This document shows positions 43,307 through 64,000 of a stretch of DNA of 64,000 nucleotides, piece after piece (the stretch's first letter is position 1; the number at the start of each line of letters is the position of its first letter). The translations under genes were made by a program, and so were the position numbers. Location of the stretch: NCBI GenBank assembly GCA_965208125.1, contig OZ242320.1, positions 768,001 to 832,000 on the forward strand. The letters are read 5' to 3'. Below the pieces are notes generated by a model. It did no database searches and was not told the origin of the DNA. It saw nothing but the letters and a program-made list of their open reading frames with translations. The stretch is from Candidatus Latescibacterota bacterium. Its GTDB lineage: Bacteria > Latescibacterota > UBA2968.

Positions 43307-43321
43307 TGCTTCCTCCTGTTC

Positions 43322-44158: not shown

Positions 44159-44192
44159 GACAATCCTCCTTCATACTACGCCTCGCCGATGG

Positions 44193-44222: not shown

Positions 44223-44234
44223 AACATCTGCGGA

Positions 44235-44975
44235 TCACACTTCCCAATATTCCCACATATCATCCGGCGTCTCAAACTGCAACAGATCCCAATTTTTTGT
44301 ACTCATGCGACTCACCAGTGCCATCCGTATCTGATCGCTACAATTCGACGTACCGCTGTGAACCATATACCCGTGCCATATACACGCAGTACCTGCTCGC
44401 CCGACCAACTCAACAGGTTCATTCAGATCAAAAATGCGGCCCATATCGCGCTCGACAATGCCGCCGGGATGATGCATATTGAGACCCAGCAGGGAATGCG
44501 ACTTGAAAAATTCTGCCACCGTCTTATGACTACCGGGCCACAGTGTAAAACCGCCGCCACGCGGCACCACATCACTGAGATAAACCGTCACACCAATCGT
44601 AAACCCCACGGTTGCACGCTCGCTCTTGTTATAACCATCCAGATGTGGCAACTTGATCGCCCACTCATCACTGCCACTGGGATACACCAGAATAGTCGAA
44701 GGATCTGCATCATCACTCAAATCGCCAGCCAGTTCCCTGCACATCGCAAACAAATCCGTTTCGTAAAGCGTCGCGCGAATCGCCGGATGATCCCAACAAT
44801 CTGGACTCCGCGGCCCGGCATCTATCCAGGTCTGTGGATCATCGCGATCTGCCTCAATATAAGTCCAAAGTGTATCGACCGCCCGTTGAATTTGCCCCTC
44901 ACTCAACATATTGTGTCGAATGAGATAGCCATTTTCTTTAAAAAAAGTTTTATCTTTAGCTGTTAAAAGTGACAT
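44235..44975 (-). CDS. PhyH-family dioxygenase
   Basis: ENGYL, PHLDG, WPGSH, WH..VHS. Shares C-terminal LQFETPDDMWEYWE with the 39097 gene. Confidence 0.87.
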   Translation of the reverse strand: MSLLTAKDKTFFKENGYLIRHNMLSEGQIQRAVDTLWTYIEADRDDPQTWIDAGPRSPDCWDHPAIRATLYETDLFAMCRELAGDLSDDADPSTILVYPSGSDEWAIKLPHLDGYNKSERATVGFTIGVTVYLSDVVPRGGGFTLWPGSHKTVAEFFKSHSLLGLNMHHPGGIVERDMGRIFDLNEPVELVGRAGTACIWHGYMVHSGTSNCSDQIRMALVSRMSTKNWDLLQFETPDDMWEYWEV

Positions 44976-44999
44976 ACCAACCCCTTACGGAGACTCACA

Positions 45000-46319: not shown

Positions 46320-46342
46320 GCGGGTTTAAAACCCGCCCCTAC
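46316..46342. repeat. REP-like palindrome
   Basis: GTAG-gcgggtttaaaacccgccc-CTAC, overlapping the TAG stop. Confidence 0.7.
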
Positions 46343-46357
46343 AGAAAAGGAACACAC

Positions 46358-47927: not shown

Positions 47928-49718
47928 CTACCGGTATTGAAACTCCGGCGATCCGATCAACATACTCACCACCTGTATATCTTTGCGCCTGGCATCTGCG
48001 GGAATCATCTCTTTGACCTCTGATGCAATAGCACTGGTATCCTGTGCCGGCAACAGCAACTTGCTATACATCGCCAATGCCTCTTCAGTCGTTGGCGTAT
48101 GCTCGCTCTGCCTGGGCAACTGCTTCAGTACAACCCCCCCAATCCTGCCCATCGCCAGACGCACGCCAAAATTCAATCGCGCAATCAGCGTACCCGAATT
48201 TGCCCACGACTCGGCATAATCCGGAAAACCCGTGGGCGGCTCATAACCATACAGCGGCTCGCCCATGCGGTAAAACCAGCCCATCAGCGGCTGTGGATTC
48301 CGTACATCGGCTTCCAATGCGCGAAGAGAACTCACCACCAATTCTAACGGCGATTTCATCTTGCTGCGCTTCTTCGCCTCTGCCCAAAACTCTCGAGACT
48401 GCGCCAGCGTAGCCATCACAGCAGCGATATCCCCATCCGTCTTACTAAATGTCTTCGCCATCCGCTTGACCAGTGCCTCGGGCGGACTGTCGTTCACAAA
48501 CCGACGCGCCAGCTTCGTAGAAATAAAATGTGCGGTTGAAGGGTGTTTGGTCAGCATATCCAGAACGCGCTCGCCCTCTTCTATGCCACCACCTGCAGGG
48601 AACTTCTCACCCAACACCACCTTGGCCTTTTTATCGTGCCAGGCATTGCGGAACAAAAATTCACCCTGGCGAACGAGATTCTTATTGCCATTGGCAATTG
48701 CCCTATCGGTATTCTTGCGCCCATTGCCATAAGGCATCGCAGTCCACCCCGTCAACACCCGCGCAACCTCTGTAACATCACGCTGCGTGTATCCACCATC
48801 CACACCCAGGGTATGCAACTCCATCAACTCACGGGCATAATTCTCATTCAAACCGTACTTGCGTCTTGGAGGCGTCTTCGGCTTCGCAACAGGCTTCGGC
48901 GGAGCCTTCGCCATCTCGCCACCCATCATACCGCCATCCATACCGCCATCCATACCCATCTCACCCGATGCCATATCCTTCTTTGGCTCAGGCCTGGGTT
49001 GATTCTGCTGCTGTGGCGTCGCCATACGCGACTGTGCATTATCCAGATAGTGCAACATCGCCGGATGCTTTGCCGTCGCGCCCAAAATCACGCGGAACTT
49101 GCCCAGCACATTGGGACGAATTGCATCGCGCTCATAGGTAAGCACGCGACTGCGCGCGCCCCCGTCGCGCGTGGTCACATTGAAATGATTGAACCAGAAA
49201 TCCGTCAACACTTCGGCGAGCTGGTTCTCGCTATACACCGCCCGCATCAGCTTCTGACTCCGAAGCTCCTGATTAAAAAGCGCGCCATAGGGACGCAACC
49301 CGTGCTTCTCGCGATACGCTTTCATCTTTTCCCGCATCTCTTTGAGAGGCGTCGTCGCCGGGTCCATCACCCCTTCTCTTTTCATCTGATTGCGAAGTTG
49401 ACCATCTGGCATATAGATCTCGGCTATTTGTAACTGCGTCATTTTCAACGCCGGATACGCTTCCAATCGCCTGTCCAACTCAGCATCCGGCAAATTGCCA
49501 GCCAACTGCTGAGCCAGCCACTTCTCTGGACCCATCTTTGCCACTTTTTCCACTTCACCGGGCCGCGCACCAAAGGCAAAACGCTCTAAGAGATACGCCG
49601 CTGCCTGCTCCTTACTCAGCCCCTCTTTTTTGTAGGGCAATTTCAACCCGGCATCCGCCGAAGTGCCTGCAAGCAAGGCACCACAGCACAAAACAATAAG
49701 TGAAAAACGAAATATCAT
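47928..49718 (-). CDS. DUF1800 family protein (copy C)
   Basis: Signal peptide, R..FGARPG, FWFNHFNV, AML.YLDN, NENYARELMELHTLG, SPEFQYR. Confidence 0.92.
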   Translation of the reverse strand: MIFRFSLIVLCCGALLAGTSADAGLKLPYKKEGLSKEQAAAYLLERFAFGARPGEVEKVAKMGPEKWLAQQLAGNLPDAELDRRLEAYPALKMTQLQIAEIYMPDGQLRNQMKREGVMDPATTPLKEMREKMKAYREKHGLRPYGALFNQELRSQKLMRAVYSENQLAEVLTDFWFNHFNVTTRDGGARSRVLTYERDAIRPNVLGKFRVILGATAKHPAMLHYLDNAQSRMATPQQQNQPRPEPKKDMASGEMGMDGGMDGGMMGGEMAKAPPKPVAKPKTPPRRKYGLNENYARELMELHTLGVDGGYTQRDVTEVARVLTGWTAMPYGNGRKNTDRAIANGNKNLVRQGEFLFRNAWHDKKAKVVLGEKFPAGGGIEEGERVLDMLTKHPSTAHFISTKLARRFVNDSPPEALVKRMAKTFSKTDGDIAAVMATLAQSREFWAEAKKRSKMKSPLELVVSSLRALEADVRNPQPLMGWFYRMGEPLYGYEPPTGFPDYAESWANSGTLIARLNFGVRLAMGRIGGVVLKQLPRQSEHTPTTEEALAMYSKLLLPAQDTSAIASEVKEMIPADARRKDIQVVSMLIGSPEFQYR

Positions 49719-49774
49719 TGCAAACCTCCTTAAAAAAATTTAAAAATATCCCCCTGGATATCCCATCCACCAGT

Positions 49775-51517
49775 TTATCGGTATTGAAACTCCGGCGACC
49801 CCAGCAGCATGCTGACCACCTGAACCTCTTTGCGTTTGGCATTATCTGGAATCGTCTCTTTCACCTCTGACGCAATAGCACTCGTATCCTGCGCTGGCAA
49901 CAGCAACTTGCTATACCTCGCCAGTGCCTCATCCGTTGTCAGACCAGCGCTATCCCGGGACAAGCGCTTCAATTCAATCCCTCTAATTTTGCCCGCAGCC
50001 AGATGAACGCCGAAATTCATTCGCGCAATCAGCGTACCCGCATTCGCCCACGACTCGGCATAATCCGGATAACCCGTAGGCGGCACATAACCATACAGCG
50101 GCTCACCCATGCGGTTAAACCAGCCCATCATCGGCTGTGGATTCTTCACATCGGCTTCCAACGCGCGAAGAGAACTCACCACCAGCTCAAATGGCGACTT
50201 CATCTTGCTGCGCTTCTTTGCCTCTGCCCAAAATTCCCTGGACTGTGCCAACGTAGCCACCACAGAAGCGATATCTCCATCCGTCTTGCTAAATGTCTTC
50301 GCCATCCGCTTGACCAGCGCCTCGGGAGGGCTATCGTTTATAAACCGACGCGCCAACTTCGTAGAAATAAAACGCGCGGTCGAAGGGTGTTCGGACAGCA
50401 TATCCAGAACGCGCTCGCCCTCTTCCATGCCACCACCTGCCGGGAACTTCTCACCCAACACCACTTTGGCATTTCTGTCGTGCCAGTCTCTGCGGAACAC
50501 AAATTCGCCCTCGCGAATGAGTTTTTTACTTCCTTTTGCGATTTGCTTCTCGAGATTTTTCCGCGCATTTTTATAAGGCATCGCAGCCCAACCTGTCAAC
50601 ACGCGCGCGACCTCGGTAACATCTCGCTGCGTGTATCCACCATCCACACCCAGCGTGTGCAACTCCATCAACTCGCGGGCGTAATTCTCATTCAAACCGT
50701 ACTTGCGTCTGCGTTGTGGAGGGGGCTGCGCCATAGCCTCACCGCCCATCATACCACCATCCATACCCATCTCGTCCGATGCCACCTTCTGCCTGGGTTG
50801 ATTTCGCTCCGATGGCGGTGCCATACGCGACTGTGTATTGTCCAGATAATACAACATCGCCGGATGCTTCGCCGTCGCACCCAAAATCACGCGGAACTTG
50901 CCCAGCACATTGGGACGAATTGCATCGCGCTCATAAGAGAGCACATAACCGCGCGCCCCACCATCGCGCGTGGTCACATTGAAATGATTAAACCAGAAAT
51001 CCGTCATCACCTCAGTGAGCTGGTTCTCGCTATACACCGCCCGCATCACTTTCTGGCTCTGAATTTCATGATTAAAAAGCGCGTTGTAAGAACGCAACCC
51101 GTGCTCCTTGCGATACGCCCTTATCTTCTGAAACATCTCTTTGCGATCCATCTTTGCGGGATCAACCGCGCCCTGTTTCTCCAGTATTCGGCGAATCCGC
51201 CCACTCTGCACATAAGTTTCAGACATTTCAAACTGCGTCATTTTCAACGCCGGATACGCTTCCAGGCGTTTGTCCAACTCAGCATCCGACAAATTGCCAG
51301 CCAACTGTTGAGCCAGCCACTTCTCGGGACCCATCTGCGCCACCTTTTCCACTTCACCTGGCCGCGCACCAAAGGCAAAACGCTCTAAGAGATACGCTGC
51401 AGCCTGCTCTTTGCTCAACCCCTCTGCCTTGTAGGGCAGTTGCAAATCGGCATTTGCCGGAGCCACCGCAAGCAGCGCACCACAGCACAAAACAACGAGT
51501 GAAAAACGCAATATCAT
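49775..51517 (-). CDS. DUF1800 family protein (copy B)
   Basis: Same motifs as copy C. GGAGG RBS before ATG 51517. Confidence 0.92.
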   Translation of the reverse strand: MILRFSLVVLCCGALLAVAPANADLQLPYKAEGLSKEQAAAYLLERFAFGARPGEVEKVAQMGPEKWLAQQLAGNLSDAELDKRLEAYPALKMTQFEMSETYVQSGRIRRILEKQGAVDPAKMDRKEMFQKIRAYRKEHGLRSYNALFNHEIQSQKVMRAVYSENQLTEVMTDFWFNHFNVTTRDGGARGYVLSYERDAIRPNVLGKFRVILGATAKHPAMLYYLDNTQSRMAPPSERNQPRQKVASDEMGMDGGMMGGEAMAQPPPQRRRKYGLNENYARELMELHTLGVDGGYTQRDVTEVARVLTGWAAMPYKNARKNLEKQIAKGSKKLIREGEFVFRRDWHDRNAKVVLGEKFPAGGGMEEGERVLDMLSEHPSTARFISTKLARRFINDSPPEALVKRMAKTFSKTDGDIASVVATLAQSREFWAEAKKRSKMKSPFELVVSSLRALEADVKNPQPMMGWFNRMGEPLYGYVPPTGYPDYAESWANAGTLIARMNFGVHLAAGKIRGIELKRLSRDSAGLTTDEALARYSKLLLPAQDTSAIASEVKETIPDNAKRKEVQVVSMLLGSPEFQYR

Positions 51518-51530
51518 TGGCAAACCTCCA

Positions 51531-51570
51531 CAAAAAAACTCGAGTGCCATACTTCGACACTCGAGTTTTT
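51531..51570 (-). terminator. Intrinsic terminator after DUF1501, abutting the RBS of DUF1800 copy B
   Basis: Minus strand aaaaaactcgagtgtcgaagtatggcactcgagttttttt, then gtGGAGG. Confidence 0.7.
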
Positions 51571-51655
51571 TCTTGCAGCGGTGTAAACTGCACACGCGCA
51601 ACACAACGTGTCAGTACAGCAGTTCAAATGAGTGGTCAATAATGACTTTACACCA

Positions 51656-52915
51656 TCACCTTAAACCGCTCACCTTCCCAACCGGGAACATCGCGATATC
51701 GTGGGAACGATCGATATTCAGATGCTTACCAGCCACATCGGCAAACACAGAACGGAAATCCGTCGTCACGGGCAAATCGCGCCGATCTTCGAGCGCATCT
51801 TTCACCAGCTTCTCTGGCACATTCCCGTGGATCTTTCCGCCAGCCACGTTATTCCCCAGCACAAACAAACACGACCCGCGGCCGTGATCCGTACCCAGAG
51901 AACCATTCTGATGCACTGTGCGACCAAATTCCGTCATCGTCATCAGCACAACATCGTCCTGATACGTACCCAAATCCGTCCAGAATGCCGCGATAGACTT
52001 GGACATCTCATCTGCCCTGCGCTGGAAAGAACCAGTCGTTGTGCCCTGCTGAACATGGGTATCCCAACCGCCAGTCTCGGTAAAGGCAACCTCAAGCCCC
52101 ACATCCGACTTGATCAGCAACGCGATCTGTTGCAGCCTGCGACCCAATGCCGTATTGGGATATTCCGCACCTTCGGCGGGCTTGTAATTATGCACGCCGA
52201 TCTTTTCCAACAACTCAATCGCATCAAAACTCTCCCGGCTCACCCTCTGAACCAGGCGTTTGGCACTCCGCGCATACATCGCCTCAAACCCTTCCTCCAC
52301 CTGTTCGGCCCCCTGCGGATTATTCGGCATCTGAATGCCAAAGGAACGCAGATCATCCACTGCAATCGAAGGCTCCTTCCCGTAAAATGCGCGCGGCAAC
52401 GCTCTGGTCAATGCCACAGACCGGAAGGGCGTACCCTCGTGACCGAGCAAACCCACTGCCCGATTGAGCCAACCCGTCCGCGTACCTTTCACACCAGGCG
52501 TCCCATTTTCCATGTAATCCTGGGCGTCAAAGTGCGACCGCGTCTTATTCGGCGAGCCTACGCCGTGGACAATAGCCAGGCGACCTTCTTTGTACAGCGG
52601 TGCCAGATCCACAAAAGAGGGATGCAATGCAAAACGACCATCCAGATCCGTCAGCTTGTTGTTCGGATCGGTCAGGTGCATAAACAAATTGGGGCGCGCC
52701 TCGGCGAGTGCCGGATCGTTAAACGGCGTCACCGCCATCAAACCATCCATAGCCCCGCGCTGGAAAATCGTCACCAGCACTTTGCGACGGCTATGTGCCA
52801 GCGGATTATTCGCAGCATCAGCCGCGCGGCTCAAGAACAGCGGCGTACCGCCAAACGAGGCAGAAAACAATGCCAATCCGCTGCCCTTCATAAATGCTCT
52901 TCGAGTCCATTCCAT
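51656..52915 (-). CDS. DUF1501 family protein with Tat signal
   Basis: TRRAFMK twin-arginine motif, RGAMDGL, RSHF, GGWDTH, EFGR, GTDHG, DFR. Confidence 0.92.
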   Translation of the reverse strand: MEWTRRAFMKGSGLALFSASFGGTPLFLSRAADAANNPLAHSRRKVLVTIFQRGAMDGLMAVTPFNDPALAEARPNLFMHLTDPNNKLTDLDGRFALHPSFVDLAPLYKEGRLAIVHGVGSPNKTRSHFDAQDYMENGTPGVKGTRTGWLNRAVGLLGHEGTPFRSVALTRALPRAFYGKEPSIAVDDLRSFGIQMPNNPQGAEQVEEGFEAMYARSAKRLVQRVSRESFDAIELLEKIGVHNYKPAEGAEYPNTALGRRLQQIALLIKSDVGLEVAFTETGGWDTHVQQGTTTGSFQRRADEMSKSIAAFWTDLGTYQDDVVLMTMTEFGRTVHQNGSLGTDHGRGSCLFVLGNNVAGGKIHGNVPEKLVKDALEDRRDLPVTTDFRSVFADVAGKHLNIDRSHDIAMFPVGKVSGLR

Positions 52916-52936
52916 AACGCTATCTCCTTTCCGAGT

Positions 52937-54730
52937 TTATCGGTATTGAAATTCCGGCGACCCCAGCAACATACTGATCACCTGAACGTCTTTGCGTTCG
53001 GCATCTGCGGGAATCGTCTGTTTAACCTCTGACGCAATAGCACTGGTATCCTGTGCTGGCAACAGCAACTTGCTATACATCGCCAGTGCCTCTTCCGTTG
53101 TCAGACCAGCACTCTCCTCAGGCAATTGCTTCAATTCAATCCCTCTGATTCTGCCCATAGCCAGATGGATACCAAAATTCATTCGCGCAATCAGCGTACC
53201 CGAATTTGCCCACGACTCGGCATAATCCGGAAAACCCGTAGGTGGCAAATAACCATACAGCGGCTCGCCCATGCGATCAAACCAGCGCATTATCGGCTGT
53301 GGATTCTTCACATCGGCTTCCAGCGCGCGAAGAGAACTCACCACCACTTCTAACGGCGACTTCATCTTGCTGCGCTTCTTCGCCTCTGCCCAAAACACGC
53401 GGGACTGCGCCAACGTAGCCACCACAGCAGCGATATCCCCATCGGTTTTGGTAAAGGTTTCCGCCATCTCATCAATCAGATCATCCGACGGTGCATCGTT
53501 TACAAAACGACGCGCCAACTTGGTCGAAATAAAACGCGCAGTTGAGGGATGACTGGTCAGCATATCCAGAACGCGCTCGCCCTCTTCCAGACCACCACCT
53601 GCAGGGAACTTCTCACCCAACACCACCTTGGCCTTGTCGTCGTGCCACGATTTGCGGAACACAAATTCGCCCTGAAGAATGTTATTTTGATTCCCATTGG
53701 CCATTTGTTTTTTGATATTTTCGCGTCCCCTTCCATAAGGTGCCGCAGCCCATCCGGTCAACACACGCGCGACCTCGGTAACATCCTGCTGCGTGTATCC
53801 ACCATCCACACCCAGCGTGTGCAACTCCATCAACTCGCGGGCATAATTCTCATTCAAACCGTACTTGCGCCTGCGTTGTGGAGGAGGAGTCTGCGCCTTT
53901 GCGGGAGCCTTCTCAGGAGCTTTTGCCATCTCACCACCCATATCGCCATCCATCCCACCATCCATACCCATCTCACCCGATGCCACTTCCTTCTTTGGCT
54001 CGGGCTTTGCCTGCTCCCTCTCCGATGGCGGCGCCATACGCGACTGTGCATTATCCAGATAATACAACATCGCCGGATGCTTCGCCGTCGCACCCAAAAT
54101 CACGCGGAACTTGCCCAACACATTGGGGCGAATCGCATCGCGCTCATAGGAAAGTGTGCGACTGCGCGCCCCACCATCGCGCGTAGTCACATTAAAGTGA
54201 TTGAACCAGAAATCCGTCATCACCTCAGTGAGCTGATTCTCGCTATACACAGCCCGCATCAGCTTCTGCCCCTTCAGTTCCTGATTGGACAGCATGCCAT
54301 AAGGACGCAACCCGTGCTCTTTGCGATACGCGTTTATCTTTTCATTCATCTCTTTGCGAGGCGTCTTCGCGGGATCAATCAACCCCGCTTTCGCCACCAT
54401 TCTGCGAATCCGCCCATTCTGCACATAAACTGCGGCCATCTCTTCCTGGGTCATTTTCAGTGCGGGAAATGCTTCCAATCGTTTCTCCAACGCCGCATCT
54501 GGCAAATTGCCCTTCAACTGCTGAGCCAGCCACTTCTCTGGACCCATCTTCGCCACTTTTTCCACTTCACCTGGACGCGCACCAAAGGCAAAACGCTCCA
54601 GAAGATACGCTGCAGCCTGCTCCTTACTCAGCCCCTCTGCCTTGTAGGGCAGTTGCAAATCGGCATTTGCCGGAGCCACCGCAAGCAACGCACCGCAGCA
54701 CAAAACAGCGAGTGCAACGCGCAATATCAT
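52937..54730 (-). CDS. DUF1800 family protein (copy A, directly upstream of DUF1501)
   Basis: Same motifs as copy C. AAGGAGG RBS before ATG 54730. Confidence 0.92.
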   Translation of the reverse strand: MILRVALAVLCCGALLAVAPANADLQLPYKAEGLSKEQAAAYLLERFAFGARPGEVEKVAKMGPEKWLAQQLKGNLPDAALEKRLEAFPALKMTQEEMAAVYVQNGRIRRMVAKAGLIDPAKTPRKEMNEKINAYRKEHGLRPYGMLSNQELKGQKLMRAVYSENQLTEVMTDFWFNHFNVTTRDGGARSRTLSYERDAIRPNVLGKFRVILGATAKHPAMLYYLDNAQSRMAPPSEREQAKPEPKKEVASGEMGMDGGMDGDMGGEMAKAPEKAPAKAQTPPPQRRRKYGLNENYARELMELHTLGVDGGYTQQDVTEVARVLTGWAAAPYGRGRENIKKQMANGNQNNILQGEFVFRKSWHDDKAKVVLGEKFPAGGGLEEGERVLDMLTSHPSTARFISTKLARRFVNDAPSDDLIDEMAETFTKTDGDIAAVVATLAQSRVFWAEAKKRSKMKSPLEVVVSSLRALEADVKNPQPIMRWFDRMGEPLYGYLPPTGFPDYAESWANSGTLIARMNFGIHLAMGRIRGIELKQLPEESAGLTTEEALAMYSKLLLPAQDTSAIASEVKQTIPADAERKDVQVISMLLGSPEFQYR

Positions 54731-54744
54731 AGCAACCCTCCTTA

Positions 54745-54906
54745 GAAGCTGTCTTAAAACCCCCAGCGGCCTCAGCACGGCTGCAAAAGCGTCGGCCTGC
54801 GTTGGTCAAACCCACCCGTATCTTGATGATATGGGTGGGTCCTCCCGCCTTGTCCGACACTTTTTCGCTCGCCCTGAGAACTCACCGGGATTTTTAAAAC
54901 ACCTTC
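54745..54906. mobile_element. MITE-like element (162 bp, 15-bp TIRs, TTA target duplication)
   Basis: Left end gaagctgtcttaaaa versus reverse complement of right end gaaggtgttttaaaa (13/15). TTA at 54742-54744 and 54907-54909. Internal hairpin acccacccgtat..atatgggtgggt. Confidence 0.75.
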
Positions 54907-54978
54907 TTAAAAAATTCCCCAAAGGGAATGGCATCTGTGAATATTTACAATAAAATATATCACAATACCTAATGGATC

Positions 54979-55024
54979 AATACAATTATACAATTTTATA
55001 CAATAATTATACAACTTTATACAA
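54979..55024. promoter_or_regulatory. Phased TATACAA direct repeats, a putative operator array in the AT-rich promoter of the DUF1800/1501 locus
   Basis: TATACAA at 54987, 54997, 55008 and 55018 (spacing 10/11/10). Confidence 0.55.
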
Positions 55025-55030
55025 TTCTTC

Positions 55031-56353
55031 TCAGAACAAATCTGCCGGAACGGGCCTGACAATAATCGAGTCAACCCCAAAGCCTTCCAACTGCTGGGGA
55101 TTCAGCGGGGCTTGCCTGTACTGCAGGATATAAGACGAGCCGCCCTGTGTCAGGTTCACGGTCAAAATATCGCCCTCTTTGCTGAAATCCACATCGGAGG
55201 CCGTCACATAAGTCAGATTCACGCCATCTGGCGCACCGCCTCGCAACGTGCCATTGAGCACGGGCACGCCGTTCTCAATCACATACCCCGCACGCCTGTT
55301 GAAGAACCGGGATTCATCGGCATGCGTGGAAAACTCAAGCGGCCTGGCAAACGTGATTTCCACCAAACCGTGTTCTATGACCGGGCCATTCTCGATGAGG
55401 GGATCCTCCACGCCAGCGGCTGGCACATGGCCAGATGGCGCGCGGTGGCGAGGGCTACGACGCTCCAGAACAGGTATCCACTGGATATCCAGTGAAGCTG
55501 GAATGCTCGGGAAGGGGTCTTCGGAATCCATCCATGTGCCATTGAGATGAGAATCTTGCAAAAACCATGTGCCGGAATACGGCATGTCATGGGTCTCCAG
55601 TTCTGCAACCACATCAGCTGGGGGGGCATAAGTGGCATAGCGTATGCCCTGACCGTCCTGCACCCACATAATCATCTGATGAGGGCGAGGGTCTTCATAG
55701 GGCCAGGGGCTATTAAAATAAACAGCCGTTCGGAGATTGCGGTTTTCAAACGAGCGGTTGTCTGGGCTCTGAGCATTTGGGATAGCAATGCGAACGCGCC
55801 CATTACCCAGCACTGTCACACGGCTATCTTCCTCGGCTCCGGGCAACACGCGTACCAGAGTATTGGGTTGGTTCAATGCCTGAGATGTATTCGGCGGTGC
55901 CGGGCTTGTATAATTGCCCACACGATTGGACAATTCACCGATCATCGGCAACCTGGGACCGATCAGCCAAATATAAAACGCACCGAGTGACAGTCTATTA
56001 CGCTCGTGGTTATTGTGATTATATTCAATGCGAAGCTGGTCGCGCGTGCCATTTACTGAACGCATATAATGCCGCACGGTCTTCTCATACGTCACAGACG
56101 CCATTGGCGGTGCTGCAAGCGGTGGATTGTACACAAATACCACCGTGCCATAATCCGATGCAGCCGCCGTAAAAATGATATGCCGGGGCGTGCCCTGAGG
56201 CGGATCGGCGACATCTATGGCACTGCCCCCATTCGTCCCGGAAATCAGCCGATAGCTGCCGCGCCACTCCTCGGTAGGCTCAACCGGGATATCCCGGGTA
56301 CATCCCGTCGCGCCCACCACGCCAATCAGACAAATCAATAAAAACTTACGCAT
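55031..56353 (-). CDS. Hypothetical lipoprotein, 440 aa
   Basis: Lipobox GATGC, AGGAGG RBS, beta-rich and Pro-rich. No recognised family. Confidence 0.8.
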   Translation of the reverse strand: MRKFLLICLIGVVGATGCTRDIPVEPTEEWRGSYRLISGTNGGSAIDVADPPQGTPRHIIFTAAASDYGTVVFVYNPPLAAPPMASVTYEKTVRHYMRSVNGTRDQLRIEYNHNNHERNRLSLGAFYIWLIGPRLPMIGELSNRVGNYTSPAPPNTSQALNQPNTLVRVLPGAEEDSRVTVLGNGRVRIAIPNAQSPDNRSFENRNLRTAVYFNSPWPYEDPRPHQMIMWVQDGQGIRYATYAPPADVVAELETHDMPYSGTWFLQDSHLNGTWMDSEDPFPSIPASLDIQWIPVLERRSPRHRAPSGHVPAAGVEDPLIENGPVIEHGLVEITFARPLEFSTHADESRFFNRRAGYVIENGVPVLNGTLRGGAPDGVNLTYVTASDVDFSKEGDILTVNLTQGGSSYILQYRQAPLNPQQLEGFGVDSIIVRPVPADLF

Positions 56354-56376
56354 CTTTTGATTCCTCCTGTCGGAAG

Positions 56377-56406
56377 GTAACGGGCGACCACAAGGGTCGC
56401 CCCTAC
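56377..56406. repeat. REP-like palindrome
   Basis: gggcgacc-acaag-ggtcgccc-CTAC. Confidence 0.72.
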
Positions 56407-56410
56407 CGCC

Positions 56411-57418
56411 TTAGAACGTTCCCGAAAGCGTCAAACGCAGCGGTCGCTCTTTAATCACACCGCCGATATCGCTATACGAAACATCCACACTTATCTTGCG
56501 CTCTTCGCTCACATTGAGATTCAAACCCGCTCCCACGCTCCAGGTCTCCACATCGTACCTGAACTTATAACCAGCGCGGAGTGCCAGCAGATTTTGTATC
56601 CACAACTCGCCACCAATGTGATCGCGCTCTCCGTAATCGCGGAAAAACACATGCTCATAAGCACCCGTCAGATAAAGCGGATCGCCCTGCTTGCCAATCA
56701 ACTCCATCGCAGCGGCCAGATTGTAGAAAAACGGCAGGCGATAATCCTCGGTCAGCACTTCCTTATTGCCGCCCAGATTGCTGATGGTCATGCCCACGCG
56801 CAGACTCTTGAAACCCGTGTAAAAGATCGTGCCGATATCAAATGTCGTGGAACTCACATTGATGATATGAAGCTGGGACCGCACATAGCGCAGGCGAAAA
56901 CCCATCGAAAACTTATCGGTCAGTTGCTTGGCAAAAGACGCCGCAACCGAAAAATCACCCAGCTTGATATTGCGCCCCGTGCCATCGGGTTGCATGGGCG
57001 TGGTCTCTTCCACATCGGGATATGTAAACGTGCGAAAAGAGACACCCACAACGCCTATGGGAATGCGATAGGCAAAACCCGCAGCCCCCATCCTGGTGCC
57101 CACCAGCCACTCGTTATAAGAGGCCAGATATGCCATATTGTCGATATGCACCAGCCCGGCTGCATTCTGGAATATCGAGTGAATATCTCGCGATGTGCCC
57201 ACATTGGCATCGGCCATGCCCGCCAGGCGCGCAGATGCCGAAATTTTCAAAAGCGCGAAGCCACTGCGCGCAATGCGGTTACCCTTATCGCCTTCCGAGC
57301 GAAAATGCCCTTCCGCAGCTATGGGTTCCAGATCATCAAAGCCTGCCACATCCTGAGCCATGGCACTTTGAGGGCTGAGAAAAAGCGCGATAGCCGCTAT
57401 CCAGATCAAATGTTTCAT
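56411..57418 (-). CDS. PorV/PorQ-like (UPF0164) outer-membrane beta-barrel
   Basis: Signal peptide, LLKI..SAR..GM..A...NAAGL N-terminal motif, DIG..Y.TGF, LALRAGY, terminal Phe. Confidence 0.82.
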   Translation of the reverse strand: MKHLIWIAAIALFLSPQSAMAQDVAGFDDLEPIAAEGHFRSEGDKGNRIARSGFALLKISASARLAGMADANVGTSRDIHSIFQNAAGLVHIDNMAYLASYNEWLVGTRMGAAGFAYRIPIGVVGVSFRTFTYPDVEETTPMQPDGTGRNIKLGDFSVAASFAKQLTDKFSMGFRLRYVRSQLHIINVSSTTFDIGTIFYTGFKSLRVGMTISNLGGNKEVLTEDYRLPFFYNLAAAMELIGKQGDPLYLTGAYEHVFFRDYGERDHIGGELWIQNLLALRAGYKFRYDVETWSVGAGLNLNVSEERKISVDVSYSDIGGVIKERPLRLTLSGTF

Positions 57419-57445
57419 AATTTGCTCCTCAATAATGACCAATGA

Positions 57446-60190
57446 TCAATTGACAATCACAAACAGACCCTTCTGGATCTGACCCTCACTCGAGGGATGG
57501 TGCGACTCAATCGCCCAGATATACGTGCCGGCATTGAGACGACCGCGCGTATTGGCATTCAAGCCCACCGTGTGCGTATCCCACTCGATTTCGCCGCGCG
57601 CCACCGGGTTGCCCCTCTGGGGATCAAGCGTATCAAAAGTCTGACGCCACGCCAGATCGCCCGTCAGCGTGTAGATATACAGCGTACACCGGCTCGGCAC
57701 ATTGACCCAGCGGATGCGAGGCGCGCCATAACTGTGCTCATCCCTGCCCTGTACCCAGGGGTTGGGCACCACCCTGATCGGCAGCGACATGGTTTCGTTT
57801 TCATGGTTGAGCAAGGCAGAAGTTAGCCGAGGCACAAGGCCATCGGCGGGGTGCCGATACTGATTGCGCTCATCCGAATGCCCGGTTTCCAATCCCTGCT
57901 CATCAAAAGCGCGTATTGAATAGTGATAAATAAAACCGATATCGGGTTCTGGATCGATAAACCTGTAGGTACCCCAGCGGAAGGGACCATCGACCTCGGC
58001 TTCGGCGGGATCTTCCTGGCCTTCTGCCCAGGGTTGATTGTCAAAAGAAGCCCCTGGAGGCGCATCTGGGGGCAACTGCCGCTCGCCTTCGGGTCCCACT
58101 GCCTTGGGAATCGTCGCCAGCAATTTCCACGGTCCAGCCCGCATAAAATCAGAGCGATAAACCCGATAACCCAGCACATCGGGACGCCCCAGATCCGGAT
58201 CGATCGCCGTATCGGCAATGCCAGACCAGTCCAGTTCGAGATCGCCTTGCAGGTTTGTAAACCCATTCACCTTCACATCGGGCGGTTGGTTAAGCCCGTC
58301 AAAACCCAGGTCATACAGCCTTTGCGCCTCATTGCCATGCGCATAAATCGCTTCCAGACCCAGTTCCAATTCGGGAATCAGGCTCTGCTGCTGCCAGTTC
58401 CACTCGTAAGGACGCGCGTACCCGCTGGTATCCATGCGATACTTTGCAGAATTGGACCCCATACCCCCTACATAAGCGATCACCACTTTGGCCTTGTCGC
58501 CGGGACCCAGGATATAAGGACCATAAACCTGTGCATCGATCCACGCACCCAATTCTTCATTGTCGTGGTATTGCACCATGCGATCTGTATCATTTTCCCC
58601 GAGCACGCCAGCAGCATCGCTGTAGATGTCGAACAATTGATTCTCGCCGTGCGTACCGCCATGCGGATCATCGCCCAGTGCCGAAGAATACATGCGCCAC
58701 CTGAACACAGCGTGCGGCTGTGGTCCCTGAGGCAGTACATAACCGCCTTTTCTATCCAGTGCATTGAACGGATGATCGGCTGTACCCGTCGCAATCGGCA
58801 TCATCCCGATATACTGCGGAGAAAGCAAGGTGCCATCTATAATATTAGATGTTGACACGTATTGATGCTGTGCGCGAGACCGGGTATAAGGCTCTCCGTA
58901 GTCATCCCACAATCGGGCAACCGCATCGCCATCATAGATATACGTCAGGTGCATTGGCGAGCCCTTGTAGTTGTAGGCATAGTCCGGATGTTCGTAATTG
59001 TCCGCCTGTGTATAGCGCCAGTAATCGTCTTGCGTGGAGGGTTGCACAAAATTCCACGCATTCGAATTCGAACCGCCAGCAGGCACCCAGTCAGCACCTG
59101 TCTTGCTGGCGATAAACCCGTTCTTGACCACAATATAGACTTCGTCGAGTTGTTTGGGATACCCGGGATCAGTACTGCCATCGCCATCTGTATCGCCATT
59201 ATTCCAGAACTCCATCTCCGTGATCAAAAAGTCATCGTAATCACCCGTGGTCATAATCGACGACTGCTTGCCATTGGGAGCAGGCACGGGGATCATCACG
59301 TCATTATCCGTACCCGGCGTGGAATACGCATGCACCATCCGCTTCACCGTAATACCCGAAGCCTGTGACCAGCCCGTCACCAGCAGATTCTCGCCGAACA
59401 ACTCGGGCGACAAACGCGGATCATTGGTCGCGACGCCATTCGACCGCATCTGATTCAACCCCGCGCGCACCCTTCTGTAGGACGACTCCAGCATCTGCTT
59501 GAACCCCTCTTTGTTCAATGGATAAAACCCGTACCCCCAGTTGTAATAATCTATTGGCTCCACTTTGTCGGGACCAGGTGGAAAACCGCGTTGCCCCAAA
59601 CCACCATAAGTACCGACAGCATACTGGTATTCCACAGGTTCGCCATTCACAAAATTGTGCGTGATTCTCATATTTCTCATGCGGGGCCAGTAAAGCGCGG
59701 CATTTTGTCCGTAATTGAACAGATTAAATGGACGACCGCCAGCCCGCCAAACAGACCGCCAAATCGATGCAATGCTTTCGACATTGTTGCGCGGATTGTG
59801 CTGGACCGGGAAAATATCTGCGGATGGCTGACGGGGACCTCCCTGAGATACATATTTGCGCCCATCATTTGTGCGCGCCATCACCCACACGCCATTGCCA
59901 CGCGAACAATCCTGTCGATTAAATCGATTCACAATACCCGATCGATAGGTCGAAGTCCACCGGCCGGGATAAGCCATGCCGACTTCGGGACCAAAGATGT
60001 TGCCACCATCCAGCGAATGCCCCAGGGTGCCATTGTTGCGCATCGACAACCAGAGTTTCGAGCGATTGGTCGTGCGGCGGCGCGTGCGCTGCTGCGCCTC
60101 GGCATCGATTATTGTCCACAACTCCGATGCACCCCACAGCACCACAAAGGCGAGCAACACCCGCGTAAATCTCTTAAATATCCGTTGCAT
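57446..60190 (-). CDS. Large secreted protein with FN3-like domain and T9SS-CTD-like C-terminus
   Basis: Signal peptide; PP..L.W...GYRVYRS...Y.YSIRAFD; C-terminal VVPNP..IRW.NVP..CTLYIYTLTGD..W...AG.YI...KGLFVIVN. Confidence 0.78.
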   Translation of the reverse strand: MQRIFKRFTRVLLAFVVLWGASELWTIIDAEAQQRTRRRTTNRSKLWLSMRNNGTLGHSLDGGNIFGPEVGMAYPGRWTSTYRSGIVNRFNRQDCSRGNGVWVMARTNDGRKYVSQGGPRQPSADIFPVQHNPRNNVESIASIWRSVWRAGGRPFNLFNYGQNAALYWPRMRNMRITHNFVNGEPVEYQYAVGTYGGLGQRGFPPGPDKVEPIDYYNWGYGFYPLNKEGFKQMLESSYRRVRAGLNQMRSNGVATNDPRLSPELFGENLLVTGWSQASGITVKRMVHAYSTPGTDNDVMIPVPAPNGKQSSIMTTGDYDDFLITEMEFWNNGDTDGDGSTDPGYPKQLDEVYIVVKNGFIASKTGADWVPAGGSNSNAWNFVQPSTQDDYWRYTQADNYEHPDYAYNYKGSPMHLTYIYDGDAVARLWDDYGEPYTRSRAQHQYVSTSNIIDGTLLSPQYIGMMPIATGTADHPFNALDRKGGYVLPQGPQPHAVFRWRMYSSALGDDPHGGTHGENQLFDIYSDAAGVLGENDTDRMVQYHDNEELGAWIDAQVYGPYILGPGDKAKVVIAYVGGMGSNSAKYRMDTSGYARPYEWNWQQQSLIPELELGLEAIYAHGNEAQRLYDLGFDGLNQPPDVKVNGFTNLQGDLELDWSGIADTAIDPDLGRPDVLGYRVYRSDFMRAGPWKLLATIPKAVGPEGERQLPPDAPPGASFDNQPWAEGQEDPAEAEVDGPFRWGTYRFIDPEPDIGFIYHYSIRAFDEQGLETGHSDERNQYRHPADGLVPRLTSALLNHENETMSLPIRVVPNPWVQGRDEHSYGAPRIRWVNVPSRCTLYIYTLTGDLAWRQTFDTLDPQRGNPVARGEIEWDTHTVGLNANTRGRLNAGTYIWAIESHHPSSEGQIQKGLFVIVN

Positions 60191-60210
60191 AAGCTAACTC
60201 CTTATTAAAT

Positions 60211-60286
60211 AGCGGTCAGCAATCGGCTTTTCCGCCGTACGGGCAGGTTTGAAACCTGCCCGTACGTTGACCGCTGAAAGCTGAGC
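60211..60286. repeat. Nested REP-like hairpin with heptamer-repeat flanks
   Basis: Perfect 15-bp arms cgtacgggcaggttt-g-aaacctgcccgtacg, inside an agcggtcagc / gttgaccgct pair. Confidence 0.7.
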
Positions 60287-60287
60287 T

Positions 60288-63200
60288 TTAGAATCTCATC
60301 CGCAAACCAAAGTGAAACTCGCGAGGTGTATCCTGGAACCGCAGAAAATCACCCACATCGCCGTATTCGATATATTCGGGATTGTCCGGCAATGGCGTGT
60401 AAATCACACCCCATTCCACGTATTCAGACCCCACTTCCACCAGCTGATTATCCACGCGATACCAGATATGCGGGTCTTTCTGGTTGAAGAGATTAAAGGC
60501 TTCGAAGAAAGCCGTCACGCTCGCGCGCCTGTTAAACTTAAAGGTCTTCTCAAAGTTGAGATCTGTGCGCGTGTGGATCGGGCCATTGTAGAAGCCTTCG
60601 CCGCCTCTTTCTGGCGGAGAATAGAAAAACCTGCGCCCCGTGAACAGGCGATACACCGTATTCAGGCGCAAATTTTCAAACGGATGAAAACCCACAAACC
60701 GCGGACCAAACTTGCTGGGCGACGTAAACATAAAGGTCACCGTGCCAAAGTTGGTTCGGTTCAGGTTGGCGGGCCGAAATTCCTGAGACTGGTTGTTGCG
60801 CTGCAACCAGGTCGAGGCGCCTTTGCCATCCCAGTTGAGCAGGCTGTTTTCCGGGTCCAGCGACCAGTTATTGCGCCCAACAGCATCTTCGATCAGTTCG
60901 AGTTGGTTGCGCGTGTTGTTGCCAAAAGCATTTCCACGTGAAAAGCGCGTAATACCATCCATGGGCCGCGGGAACTCTTCGCCCGTATCGCTGCCATTGA
61001 CAATACCGGGACCATAAACACCTTCTTCGGTAAGAAAATCACCGTCGCCATTGGAATCGTGTGTCCACTCATACCAGTAATGCGACAGATAATTGCCAGC
61101 ATTGTCGATATAGCCGGCATAATTGCCGAAGTTCGACGGATTCTTGGTCGCCAACCTGTCTGGATTGACATAGTGATGGCCGCGAACACCCGAGTTGCCA
61201 TTTTCAACCCACTGCACATTGTAGGCAATCGTAAACGCCGTCATGTAGTTGAATTTCTTTTTAACAGACAACTCAAAGCCGCGCGTGTCGCGGTTATTCG
61301 TCTGACCCGATGCATTCACCGACCTTTGATGCTGCAAACCCTGAGATTGGTGGCGATAGCTACCACCACTGCGGCGGTTGATCTGTTGCTTGTAATACGC
61401 CGTTATACCCGCCGTGTAATCCGTGATGAAGTTCCAGTCTGCACCCACTTCAAAACTCGTGGTCACCAGCGGCACAATCTTCGGCCATCCCCACTGTCCC
61501 GCATCCACGACATCCAGTGTATTGTACAATTCAGATTCGTCAATCCGCCCATTCTGGTTCAAATCCAGAAATTCCTCTTCGGTGCGGTAGCTGTGCGAGA
61601 AAATCCACCAGAATTGCTCAATCTGTTCAAACTTGCCAAAGGTGAAGTGCATCGCGCTGCTCTCCGTAATCGGATGCGACACACCCACACGCGGCGACAG
61701 CACATGGATTGCTCCCGGACGATGGGTCGGGATATTCTCGATCTTTGTCGGATCGTGATACTTGTACAGAGAAAGAAAATATTCCGATTGCGGCATCTCG
61801 GTATTCGGACTCCAGCGCAAACCGCGCAAGCCCACATTCACCACAATCCCCTCAAACTCCATCTTATCTTGGAAATACACGGCGTATTGACGCGGCACCA
61901 CGCCGACCTGGGGATTGTTGAACTGGCTGTAATACCTCTCGATCAAACCTCTGAAGTCGTTTTTATTGCGAGAGAAACCCCAGTTGTCGTAGAACAAAAA
62001 GTCAATACCCGTTTTGATGAAGTGCCCTTTGGTCACCTGGCTGGAATAATCGACCTTGAGCTGATAGCGGTCGCGCTCTGAATTTGTCCAGTTCACCACC
62101 GGGCGGCCAATGTAAAACCAGCCAGAGTCATTGCCAATACCCGGCTCGACATAGGGCTGATCTGTATTGAAGGGCAGTTCCGTATTCACCTCAGATGTAC
62201 GAGAATACGAGAACCGGATTTCGTAAAACGTGCGCGCCGACAGCGTGTGCGTCAAAGACGCGTAATTCATAAAATCGCGCGTGCGCAACTTGCCCGCCCC
62301 CGAGTATTCGGCAGGCACAAAGAGGTTGCGACCAGAAGAGTTCATATTCTTGCGCGAACCCTGTTCAATGCGCCGAATAACGCCTGCATTGTACCGAGAA
62401 CGCTGATTGAATATAGACCCATAGTTAAATCTGATGTTATTACCCGGGCGATACGTCAACTTTAAGTTCGTGCGGTTGTTAGGCAGTGATACCGCCGTGG
62501 GCGCGGGCAAAGCCGAGGGATTGCGATTTACCGAAGACGTCAACGTGAAGCCCAGCTTTCTCATAATCGGACCACCCAGCATTGCTTCGCCGCGACCGCC
62601 CCACACGCCCGTGTAATCCTGGCGTACGTGAACCTTGCGCTGAACATCGTCGGTGGCAAACTGAGAATCGGTTATCTCGCCCGTCTGATTGTCGTGACCC
62701 AGAATACCGTCGGGACCCGGGTACCACGCCTGCAAATTCTCCCACTCGGGATTGCCCCACTGCATCCTGCCGCGATGCACGGGTGCTTCATACACATTTG
62801 CTCCCCAGTGCTTTTGTCCGGGAGGCGTAATGCGATATTCACCTCTACCCGTGTACCTCTGACCACCTTCTTTGGTCACCACGGAAACGACAGAACCCGC
62901 ATTGCCGTACTCCGCATTCATCCCGCCGCTCAACACCGTCAGTTCTTGTACGGCACTCGTGTTCACGCCCTGAAACCGCGTAAATCCGGCACGCGCATCG
63001 TTATTCACCACGCGCACCCCATCAACCATATACGCCGTCTCCCAGAAGTTGCCACCGCGAACACTCTCCTCTTCGTCGGGGGTCACGCCCGCTTGCAACT
63101 CCACAAAGTCCGACATTTCTCGGACGATCGGCAGTGACTCGATCTCTTCTGCCGTAATAACGGATTTACTCTCCGTCTTGTCGTGCTCCACTGGCGGACG

Positions 63201-63566
63201 CTCTGCAACCACGATCATCTCGCCCAATTGGAGCGCTTCTTCCTGCATCTCGAAGTTCACCGTCGTGGTATGGTCAACATTGACGATCACACCCTGGCGA
63301 ATAGACTTTGAATACCCCATCATCACCGTTTCAACATCATAGGTTCCCGGCGGAATATTAATGATGAAGTATTCGCCCTCCTCGTCGGTGATCCCGGCGC
63401 GTTTCACGCCATCGATATCGATCACCACATTGGCACCGGGCAGCGGATCACCTGTAATCTCAGTGACTCGTCCACTGATTTTACCCGTTGTGGCCGCTTC
63501 TGCCAATCCGGTGCTGATCACCAGAGCGACCAGCAGACCCAGACAACACAATAATCGCTTGCTCAT
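60288..63566 (-). CDS. TonB-dependent receptor (CarboxypepD_reg-like N-terminus, plug, barrel)
   Basis: TGKISGRV..GDPLPGANV, G.Y.I.NIPPG.Y, VRGG..E..Y.VDG, SGG.NAEYG, QDKMEF, SPR.GVSHP, terminal Phe. Confidence 0.9.
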   Translation of the reverse strand: MSKRLLCCLGLLVALVISTGLAEAATTGKISGRVTEITGDPLPGANVVIDIDGVKRAGITDEEGEYFIINIPPGTYDVETVMMGYSKSIRQGVIVNVDHTTTVNFEMQEEALQLGEMIVVAERPPVEHDKTESKSVITAEEIESLPIVREMSDFVELQAGVTPDEEESVRGGNFWETAYMVDGVRVVNNDARAGFTRFQGVNTSAVQELTVLSGGMNAEYGNAGSVVSVVTKEGGQRYTGRGEYRITPPGQKHWGANVYEAPVHRGRMQWGNPEWENLQAWYPGPDGILGHDNQTGEITDSQFATDDVQRKVHVRQDYTGVWGGRGEAMLGGPIMRKLGFTLTSSVNRNPSALPAPTAVSLPNNRTNLKLTYRPGNNIRFNYGSIFNQRSRYNAGVIRRIEQGSRKNMNSSGRNLFVPAEYSGAGKLRTRDFMNYASLTHTLSARTFYEIRFSYSRTSEVNTELPFNTDQPYVEPGIGNDSGWFYIGRPVVNWTNSERDRYQLKVDYSSQVTKGHFIKTGIDFLFYDNWGFSRNKNDFRGLIERYYSQFNNPQVGVVPRQYAVYFQDKMEFEGIVVNVGLRGLRWSPNTEMPQSEYFLSLYKYHDPTKIENIPTHRPGAIHVLSPRVGVSHPITESSAMHFTFGKFEQIEQFWWIFSHSYRTEEEFLDLNQNGRIDESELYNTLDVVDAGQWGWPKIVPLVTTSFEVGADWNFITDYTAGITAYYKQQINRRSGGSYRHQSQGLQHQRSVNASGQTNNRDTRGFELSVKKKFNYMTAFTIAYNVQWVENGNSGVRGHHYVNPDRLATKNPSNFGNYAGYIDNAGNYLSHYWYEWTHDSNGDGDFLTEEGVYGPGIVNGSDTGEEFPRPMDGITRFSRGNAFGNNTRNQLELIEDAVGRNNWSLDPENSLLNWDGKGASTWLQRNNQSQEFRPANLNRTNFGTVTFMFTSPSKFGPRFVGFHPFENLRLNTVYRLFTGRRFFYSPPERGGEGFYNGPIHTRTDLNFEKTFKFNRRASVTAFFEAFNLFNQKDPHIWYRVDNQLVEVGSEYVEWGVIYTPLPDNPEYIEYGDVGDFLRFQDTPREFHFGLRMRF

Positions 63567-63636
63567 TTACGACCCTCCATAAAAAATGGTGAGTGGGATA
63601 GTCCAGTTCCCCCATACTGGAGAACTGAATCTCTAT

Positions 63637-64000
63637 TTACTCGAAATAATATTTAAAACTCACACCAGCATCCACTGTCCCGATCGGAAACGCCTTGTTC
63701 ATTCCCCAGGCGGTCAATGGATTGATCTCGCCAAAAATGAGATTGTAGCGCACGCGAAAATCAAGCCCATACGAAGAACCCAGCGATCCCTCAAAACCCG
63801 CACTTATGGGAATTGTCCACGCTGTCCGCGTATCCTCTGTGGGCACCAACCCGTGCAATAACACCTGACCATTGTCAATTATGCCGATGTTATCCCTCTG
63901 AGCTTCGGTCAGATTCTTGGTATCCAGAGAGGAATTCGGATTGCCCGGATACACCAGCGATATCTGCACGCCGCCGCGATCCACCTCTTCTGGAATATCG
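63637..64000 (-). CDS. C-terminal part of a probable outer-membrane beta-barrel protein, 5' end outside the window
   Basis: Frame stays open to the window edge. Alternating amphipathic strands ending ...AGVSFKYYFE. Confidence 0.6.
   Translation of the reverse strand, partial: DIPEEVDRGGVQISLVYPGNPNSSLDTKNLTEAQRDNIGIIDNGQVLLHGLVPTEDTRTAWTIPISAGFEGSLGSSYGLDFRVRYNLIFGEINPLTAWGMNKAFPIGTVDAGVSFKYYFE

Follow-up and report, generated by a model that had tools for sequence, protein, structure and literature searches.

The end of a 64,000-nucleotide (nt) stretch of DNA from a Candidatus Latescibacterota bacterium (assembly GCA_965208125.1, contig OZ242320.1, positions 768,001 to 832,000; the whole stretch is referred to as the window) carries five co-oriented genes, placed by its list of open reading frames (ORFs) on the minus strand between 54,914 and 64,000. 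In the direction of reading, the unit opens with the 3′ end of a gene for a small outer-membrane barrel, followed by the genes for a TonB-dependent receptor, a 914-amino-acid (aa) protein referred to here as X (57446-60190), a barrel of the PorV/PorQ family and a candidate lipoprotein, and it closes with a terminator-like hairpin (Table 1). The spacers between these genes measure 27–97 nt. The five genes likely form one operon ending before a neighbouring row of DUF1800 and DUF1501 genes, and the two GC-rich hairpins lying in its spacers may serve as processing or stability elements inside it. The DUF1800/DUF1501 genes (47928-54778) were considered as members of the unit and left out, with the terminator-like hairpin and a 250-nt AT-rich spacer lying between and with no such genes following the unit in the related locus L017. 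Throughout, L001–L058 denote loci with an X-family gene found in genome contigs, comprising the close loci L001–L023 and the distant loci L024–L058 (n = 35); the latter were found solely via two short motifs of the X tail and were confirmed by tblastn.

Table 1. Genes, domains and spacer elements of the five-gene unit, with their positions in the window.
Feature	Position	Strand	Remarks
Small outer-membrane barrel candidate, 3′ end	63637..64000 (ORF 63637-63999)	-	120 codons; gene cut by the window end
TonB-dependent receptor, 1092 aa	60288..63566	-	Signal peptide; CarboxypepD_reg 30-108; Plug 129-223; large barrel
Hairpin, perfect, GC-rich, without T-run	60237..60267	-	Spacer between receptor and X
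X, 914 aa	57446..60190	-	Sec signal peptide, residues 1-32; no lipobox
X, beta-rich body, residues ~36-635	58286-60085	-	AlphaFold2 model
X, FN3-like domain, residues ~636-790	57821-58285	-	AlphaFold2 model
X, Ig-like C-terminal domain, residues ~800-914	57449-57793	-	AlphaFold2 model
PorV/PorQ-family barrel, 335 aa	56411..57418	-	Start in ORF list: TTG 57442 (343 aa)
Hairpin, GC-rich, without T-run	56381-56402	-	Spacer between barrel and lipoprotein
Lipoprotein candidate, 440 aa	55031..56353	-	Lipobox-like ...GATG-C
Terminator-like hairpin, then T-run	54914..54929	-	Likely end of the unit

An initial annotation, made from the sequence alone, had described these genes as a set with envelope features throughout, and the ORF list and family scans bear this out. 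The receptor, whose chain runs from an N-terminal signal peptide to a C-terminus reading ...RMRF, matches CarboxypepD_reg with 59 bits and Plug with 34.9 bits (cutoff 23.9), and by its Plug domain it is placed among the TonB-dependent receptors, a class defined by this domain and a 22-strand barrel. Its score of 45 bits against the SusC/RagA model TIGR04056, for which the cutoff is 368, places it outside the SusC family. The window receptor itself does not match the barrel model PF00593 (TonB_dep_Rec_b-barrel), which is matched by its relatives in L030, L031, L040 and L042; relatives in other phyla (phmmer E-values of 1e-40 to 1e-119) bear PF00593 and PF25183. A sequence search of the receptor against the PDB gave no match.

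The gene after the receptor had been described as encoding something other than a SusD lipoprotein, namely a Sec-dependent protein with an FN3-like domain and a C-terminal immunoglobulin (Ig)-like tail, and this description holds. X shows no match to SusD and no lipobox cysteine, its signal peptide is read directly from the translation, and both domains appear in its AlphaFold2 (AF2) model (predicted local distance difference test, pLDDT, 77; predicted template modelling score, pTM, 0.83), in which a beta-rich body is followed by seven strands at residues 641-763 (FN3-like) and a further seven at 806-913 (tail). Neither X nor its last 114 residues match any Pfam or NCBIfam model even at an E-value of 10, a Pfam scan of 16 X proteins of the distant loci gave no match at E ≤ 1e-3, and a profile of X found no match among PDB sequences. 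The number of representative clusters retrieved by an exhaustive profile search falls from 2588 at E ≤ 1e-3 to 871 at E ≤ 1e-10 and to 81 at E ≤ 1e-30. Around fifty representatives of 740-840 aa align to X positions 261-912, and the first ~260 residues of X are lineage-specific. X belongs to one broad family, since a profile built from 61 members matches the X proteins of distant loci at the end of the body with the FN3-like domain and at the tail, and in some loci at the N-terminus too; X forms of ~920 aa carry an insert of ~280 residues between the body-end/FN3 region and the tail.

Structural comparison of the whole X model with Foldseek is dominated by tandem FN3 proteins, with PorZ (5m11) at rank 2. 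Modelled alone, the body (residues 36-640; pLDDT 78, pTM 0.86) bears only a weak likeness to the N-terminal beta-sandwich domains of GH94 phosphorylases and of GH15-type enzymes such as dextran dextrinase, at template modelling (TM) scores of 0.19-0.26. These scores are too weak for the likeness to be accepted as a statement of function, and as a lead only they hint that the body may bind a glycan. A structural-atlas look-up of the body returned 30 look-alikes, all 30 of them unnamed clusters from phyla of the Fibrobacteres–Chlorobi–Bacteroidetes (FCB) superphylum.

The tail of X is of particular interest since it had been assigned to the C-terminal domains (CTDs) that mark type IX secretion system (T9SS) cargo. 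Such CTDs are defined as a 3+4 sandwich in the available part of PMC11285876, and X combines, in its AF2 model, a Sec signal with a C-terminal seven-strand Ig-like sandwich, as general T9SS CTD cargo does; the expectation that this region folds as a CTD or Ig domain is thus supported at the level of the model. The narrower classes are not reached: X has no type-A tail match (TIGR04183/PF18962) above cutoff, and neither the type-B tail models (TIGR04131/PF13585) nor the PorP/SprF barrel model TIGR03519 that accompanies them is found in the unit. Among the 61 relatives of X, 13 match the PorZ model and eight the PorU model, and in the individually listed matches, which cover 54 of the 61 members, only the last ~90 model positions, corresponding to the CTDs, are involved. 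Other tail matches among these relatives are to TIGR04183 (three), CHU_C (five) and FlgD_ig (two), and of 11 X proteins of the distant loci, nine match the CTD of PorZ and six TIGR04183. All CTD-model matches of the relatives sit below the curated cutoffs, with maxima of 22.5 bits for TIGR04183 (cutoff 23) and of 30.6 bits for PorZ (NF052228; cutoff 260), the latter at model positions ~656-757 and in relatives only. TIGR04131 is matched neither by the 61 relatives nor by window X, and UPF0164 was never matched in family scans of the unit proteins. Of the diagnostic models proposed at the outset (UPF0164, TIGR04183, TIGR04131 and FlgD_ig), none was matched by the window proteins. The idea of a T9SS-type tail accordingly keeps its support from the fold and from the weak PorZ, PorU and Por_Secre_tail matches in relatives, and loses the direct match to a CTD model that window X might have given. 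X was also considered as a PorZ orthologue, a possibility rejected because the CTD alone matches, never the body.

Directly behind X lies the barrel that the initial annotation had called PorV-like, and this assignment is secure at the family level, with 161 bits against NF033709 (PorV/PorQ family; cutoff 90), a further match to PF19572 and a match to the PorV chain 6h3i_F at an E-value of 3.8e-9. It lies below the equivalog cutoffs of its better-known relatives, with 75.9 bits against 250 for PorV (NF033710) and 60.6 against 220 for PorQ (NF033711), and the PorV2 cutoff is likewise not reached. The protein begins with a signal peptide ending ...AMA/QD and terminates in ...SGTF. Translation probably begins at ATG 57418, which is preceded by GAGGAG and lies 27 nt past the X stop; the corresponding methionine, M9 of the longer ORF, is nearly invariant among relatives. 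All 15 PorV-like neighbours tested from distant loci share this profile, scoring above the NF033709 cutoff (139-232 bits) and in no case above those of PorV, PorQ or PorV2; PorQ is often their second-best model, and TIGR03519 (PorP/SprF) was matched in one of the 15, at E 0.006 and below its cutoff.

Complex prediction with the X CTD (residues 795-914) and the barrel (residues 30-343) gave a score of 0.89 in three runs, and the best of three controls, in which either side was replaced, reached 0.01. A cognate interface is hence predicted, as had been anticipated. This mark is attained by 116 of 157 complexes of solved structure and by two of 215 mismatched pairs, a calibration that is only rough here given that own alignments were used. 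The runs share at least 70% of their contacts, with partner pLDDT values of 71-73. On the side of X, the predicted interface is formed by conserved tail motifs (806-811, 836-847, 883-895 and 905-914), and on the barrel side the contacts recur every 35-40 residues, as would be expected if they were loops of one barrel face in the model.

The order of these genes is conserved well beyond the window. L001-L021 are Latescibacterota genome records whose X copies are 85-96% identical to window X, and 17 of the 23 close loci keep the full order of small barrel, receptor, X, PorV-like barrel and lipoprotein; in L023 X, PorV-like gene and lipoprotein stand at a contig start, and in L022 the contig ends inside X. 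Labels are discordant among near-identical sequences, with 21 genome records assigned to Latescibacterota, one contig (L022) to Rhodothermaceae and one partial protein to Gemmatimonadota. In the distant loci, a PorV-like gene starts at most 100 nt after X in 26/35, and a relative of the window receptor lies directly upstream of X in 19/35. A contiguous receptor–X–PorV-like trio is present in 17/35 by phmmer labels and in 19/35 with the inclusion of L034, where the receptor is recognised by Pfam, and L039, where X is split into two ORFs; three more distant loci (L024, L040 and L048) carry the trio genes permuted or interrupted. A contig end cuts off one side in eight distant loci (L032, L043, L045, L051, L052, L053, L055 and L058), L037 is broken up by frame breaks, and L038 has the gene sizes of L034, with its upstream gene outside the Pfam scan. 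The record titles of the distant loci name Ignavibacteria, KSB1, Fidelibacterota, Calditrichota, Zixibacteria, Chlorobi-labelled metagenome-assembled genomes, Marinimicrobia and Bacteroidota. Because it recurs in other phyla, the arrangement is not due to chance, and conservation of the gene order across several FCB phyla, on which the initial annotation had staked its proposal, is thereby established.

One distant locus, L047, is titled Burkholderiales and has the layout and gene sizes of the Crocinitomicaceae/Bacteroidetes loci L034, L038 and L058: the receptor measures ~1250 aa and X ~1256-1393 aa, and after the barrel come two genes, of 157 and 128-130 aa, which in L034, where Pfam was applied, are GreA and a HIT-domain protein. 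The Burkholderiales label may be a binning error.

Further detail comes from the composition of the loci. In L052 (638-6380), two X–PorV-like pairs stand in tandem with no receptor between them, which suggests that X and its barrel form the tighter unit. The distance matrices of receptor, X and barrel correlate with r values of 0.87-0.96 over 18 trios, a value reached in none of 2000 permutations, and this correlation fits inheritance of the trio as one unit. Around the trio in L035, L036, L041, L042, L033, L057 and L030 (Ignavibacteria, Chlorobi and Calditrichia labels), the flanking genes encode RpiR regulators, S51 and M14 peptidases, DcuC and SNF/SSF transporters, and BNR proteins with the canonical type-A tail, and some of the peptidases also bear Por_Secre_tail. 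Judged by their family assignments, these neighbours hint at peptide or amino-sugar use, and such catabolic and transport functions would fit uptake better than envelope biogenesis.

Aside from the conserved trio, the two outer genes of the unit have a narrow distribution. The translation of the small barrel terminates in ...VSFKYYFE. Its full-length relatives (271-361 aa), which immediately precede the receptor gene in 17 Latescibacterota loci, match OMP_b-brl weakly (E 8.5e-4, below cutoff), and beyond the close loci the small barrel is represented in L024 only, where a distant relative (E 2e-6) separates X from the PorV-like gene. For the lipoprotein, 29 other proteins were found, all at least 61% identical over the aligned part, and among L001-L058 it occurs in the Latescibacterota-type loci and L023 only. 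Neither the small-barrel fragment nor the lipoprotein matched Pfam or NCBIfam at an E-value of 10, and a structural-atlas look-up of the lipoprotein gave a best score of 0.86 and no named look-alike, which is a lead only. By this distribution, both proteins would be lineage-specific accessories outside the conserved core. The initial view of the lipoprotein as part of the module is therefore right for the unit in the window and does not extend beyond that lineage and L023. Directly 3′ of the lipoprotein stop, the minus strand carries five AT-rich near-repeats of TTGTATAA(T/A) (54975-55030).

The reading considered to have a somewhat better than even chance is that the trio constitutes a conserved nutrient-uptake module, in which a TonB-dependent receptor works with a surface protein, X, tethered by a retained CTD to a dedicated PorV-family barrel. 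[quoted passage not shown] Held beside the receptor in this manner, X would capture or handle a substrate with its beta-sandwich body on the FN3-like stalk and pass it to the receptor for TonB-driven import, thus filling the place of the SusD lipoprotein in SusCD systems. To the gene anatomy, family assignments and trio conservation, which are observed, and to the fold and CTD–barrel interface, which are predicted, this proposal adds what we infer about the surface location of X, the retention of its CTD, its cooperation with the receptor and the nature of its substrate. The sulfatase-rich setting of the window and the weak fold likeness of the body suggest that the substrate may be a glycan. 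A bolder version, put forward tentatively and with chances clearly short of even, is that receptor, X and barrel form one stable outer-membrane complex and, next to lone receptors and SusCD, represent a third architecture of TonB-dependent capture, with a non-lipidated lid or arm, type IX-like delivery and a CTD retained on a private FadL-type barrel; this architecture would be widespread in the largely uncultured FCB phyla, and X would be a large unannotated surface family.

Several observations weigh against the uptake proposal. The barrel is present without a receptor in L044, X stands without an adjacent barrel or receptor in L026 and L027, and a second X copy, 87-89% identical, in L005, L015, L018 and L021 (X ~10001-12733 in each) has no PorV-like gene or lipoprotein alongside. 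This second copy is followed in all four loci, by ORF sizes, by genes of 837-865 aa and then 277-336 aa. In L005, the one of the four scanned with Pfam, these encode a different receptor (CarboxypepD_reg and Plug) and a DUF4249 protein, and the place of a receptor gene next to this copy counts in favour of the proposal. The number of independent loci is also lower than 35, because L054/55/56, L034/38/58, L040/43/48 and L031/46/50 are near-duplicates, and the correlation of distance matrices was rejected as proof of co-evolution, since shared phylogeny alone gives the same result. As for the tail, window X has no match to TIGR04183, PF18962, CHU_C or FlgD_ig even at an E-value of 10, so that the evidence for a CTD consists of the modelled fold and of matches in relatives that fall below threshold; the body is likewise without a confident structural or family match. 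The complex score may reflect likeness to known complexes because PorV-containing structures have been solved, and it is silent on whether the CTD is retained or cleaved. Two links of the argument are of a more general nature: the central claim, which we infer, is that X binds or processes a substrate and that X and receptor together stand in for SusCD, and the type IX route would be knowledge of the Bacteroidota T9SS carried over by analogy to a latescibacterial host. According to the available part of PMC12611786, SprA is FCB-specific and Chlorobiota is an FCB phylum without it; that part of the source makes no mention of Latescibacterota.

Among other explanations, the one that X is ordinary type IX cargo deserves the most attention, even if it is held to be unlikely. 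Here the barrel would be a private shuttle, the CTD would be cleaved, X would be released or attached to lipopolysaccharide, and the receptor would import what X makes or binds. PorV is described as a shuttle of type-A cargo in the available part of PMC11205867, the type-A tail model is weakly matched by the three of 61 and six of 11 relatives noted above, and a transient contact would fit the predicted complex equally well. PorZ and PorU, however, supply the best and most frequent CTD matches, and their own CTDs are kept and stay attached to PorQ and PorV, with cognate PorV-like barrels suggested to protect the CTD from cleavage (PMC10202324, in the part available). A barrel gene for each X gene, as seen in 26/35 loci and in the tandem pairs of L052, would moreover be superfluous for a shuttle that serves many cargoes, and the canonical Por_Secre_tail proteins encoded in trio loci come without a barrel of their own.

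In a further explanation, the trio would be a device for envelope biogenesis or secretion, in which X would be an attachment factor of the PorZ kind seated on a PorQ-like barrel, with the receptor-like barrel engaged in export. The resemblance of the X CTD to that of PorZ, the frequent second place of PorQ among the barrel scores and the peptidyl-prolyl isomerase genes flanking the trio in L040 speak for it, and Oar of Myxococcus has reportedly been proposed as a receptor-like barrel acting in export. Such a role is nonetheless judged improbable: PorZ is matched at its CTD and never at its body, X consists of a beta-sandwich and FN3 architecture whose body has no confident match to PorZ or another solved structure, the receptors carry a normal Plug domain, and in other phyla the trio stands next to genes of catabolism or transport (S51 and M14 peptidases, DcuC, SNF, SSF and RpiR). 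Less probable still, and only a slight chance in our estimate, is that the barrel serves next to the receptor as a channel of FadL type through which a hydrophobic compound passes, with the X tail an Ig domain devoid of any docking role. The available part of PMC12578637 calls PorV a FadL homologue, and the failure of window X to reach any CTD model would be understandable on such terms; yet the predicted interface is specific, with replacement of either side lowering the score from 0.89 to 0.01, it is built on the best-conserved tail motifs, and selecting loci by tail motifs alone recovered the barrel in 26/35.

The proposed uptake module with a docked X is worth pursuing because what is understood of TonB-dependent uptake in the FCB superphylum comes almost wholly from SusCD and its lipoprotein partners. 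The present trio suggests a second conserved way of giving a receptor a surface partner, by borrowing the CTD-to-PorV docking of type IX secretion, and it offers a testable role for a family of 2588 clusters not covered by any Pfam or NCBIfam model. The trio also points to a subclass of PorV/PorQ barrels that is neither PorV nor PorQ. The trio occurs in phyla for which metagenomes are the main source of knowledge (Latescibacterota, Zixibacteria, KSB1, Calditrichota, Fidelibacterota and Ignavibacteria); some carriers are labelled Bacteroidota or Ignavibacteria, groups with cultured members, so that a bench test may be possible.

The surroundings of the unit in the window hold further groups of genes. 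On the minus strand beside it, three DUF1800 genes and one DUF1501 gene stand in a row (47928-54778), and the DUF1800 copies share near-identical internal stretches, as the same hairpin-like motif recurs at ~48353, 50197 and 53359. A dense region at 33691-47857 holds eight genes for PhyH-family dioxygenases (34478-44975), with a ninth at 15849-16670. There are four sulfatase genes (525-1979, 37641-39107, 45000-46319 and 46358-47857) and one esterase gene. The PhyH and sulfatase families assigned to these genes suggest a locus for degrading sulfated or branched substrates.

Comparison with known systems places the trio between two of them. A full-text literature search, which covered papers outside subscription, found no description of a module made of receptor, CTD protein and PorV-like barrel. 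In the T9SS attachment complex of Porphyromonas gingivalis, PorZ–PorQ and PorU–PorV likewise unite a Sec-exported protein bearing an Ig-like CTD with a PorV-family barrel; the CTDs of X relatives match the CTD regions of PorZ and PorU, and PorZ (5m11) is among the top fold matches. The body of X is unrelated to theirs, the barrel falls below the PorQ and PorV equivalog cutoffs, the X and barrel genes adjoin behind a receptor gene, and the host belongs to Latescibacterota. The BamG–BamH pair of the Bacteroidota BAM complex provides another parallel, in that the loops of a 14-strand FadL-like barrel keep hold of an extracellular protein (available part of PMC12578637), and some trio barrels weakly match the BamG model; these matches remain at or below 32 bits against a cutoff of 250, and the unit has no BamA context.

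The initial annotation had drawn its precedents from Bacteroidota, where PorV shuttles CTD cargo and some type-B CTD cargoes need a PorP/SprF barrel encoded with them. SprB–SprF, of the latter kind, does resemble the trio in that cargo and dedicated barrel are encoded side by side, and SprB-type cargo stays on the surface (PMC11205867 and PMC10202324, in the parts available). The dedicated, co-encoded barrel thus carries over from that precedent, whereas its family does not: the barrel here is of the PorV/PorQ and not the PorP/SprF family, and the relatives of X show CHU_C weakly in 5/61 and TIGR04131 in none. The closest precedent is accordingly the retention of PorZ and PorU CTDs on PorQ and PorV, rather than a type-B CTD with PorP/SprF. 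SusCD, for its part, shares with the trio a large receptor with an N-terminal CarboxypepD_reg domain followed by the gene of a surface partner. The window itself supplies the contrast that had been drawn, since its canonical SusCD pair (24296-28529) is confirmed by 544 bits for SusC (24296-27214) against TIGR04056 with its cutoff of 368 and by 27.4 bits for SusD_RagB (27225-28529; cutoff 23.1). The receptor of the trio, by contrast, is not a SusC, and in place of a SusD lipoprotein it is accompanied by a non-lipidated protein with a CTD and an anchoring barrel of its own. Taken together, the proposed anchoring resembles that of PorZ–PorQ and the pairing of receptor and partner that of SusCD, and the module is a member of neither.

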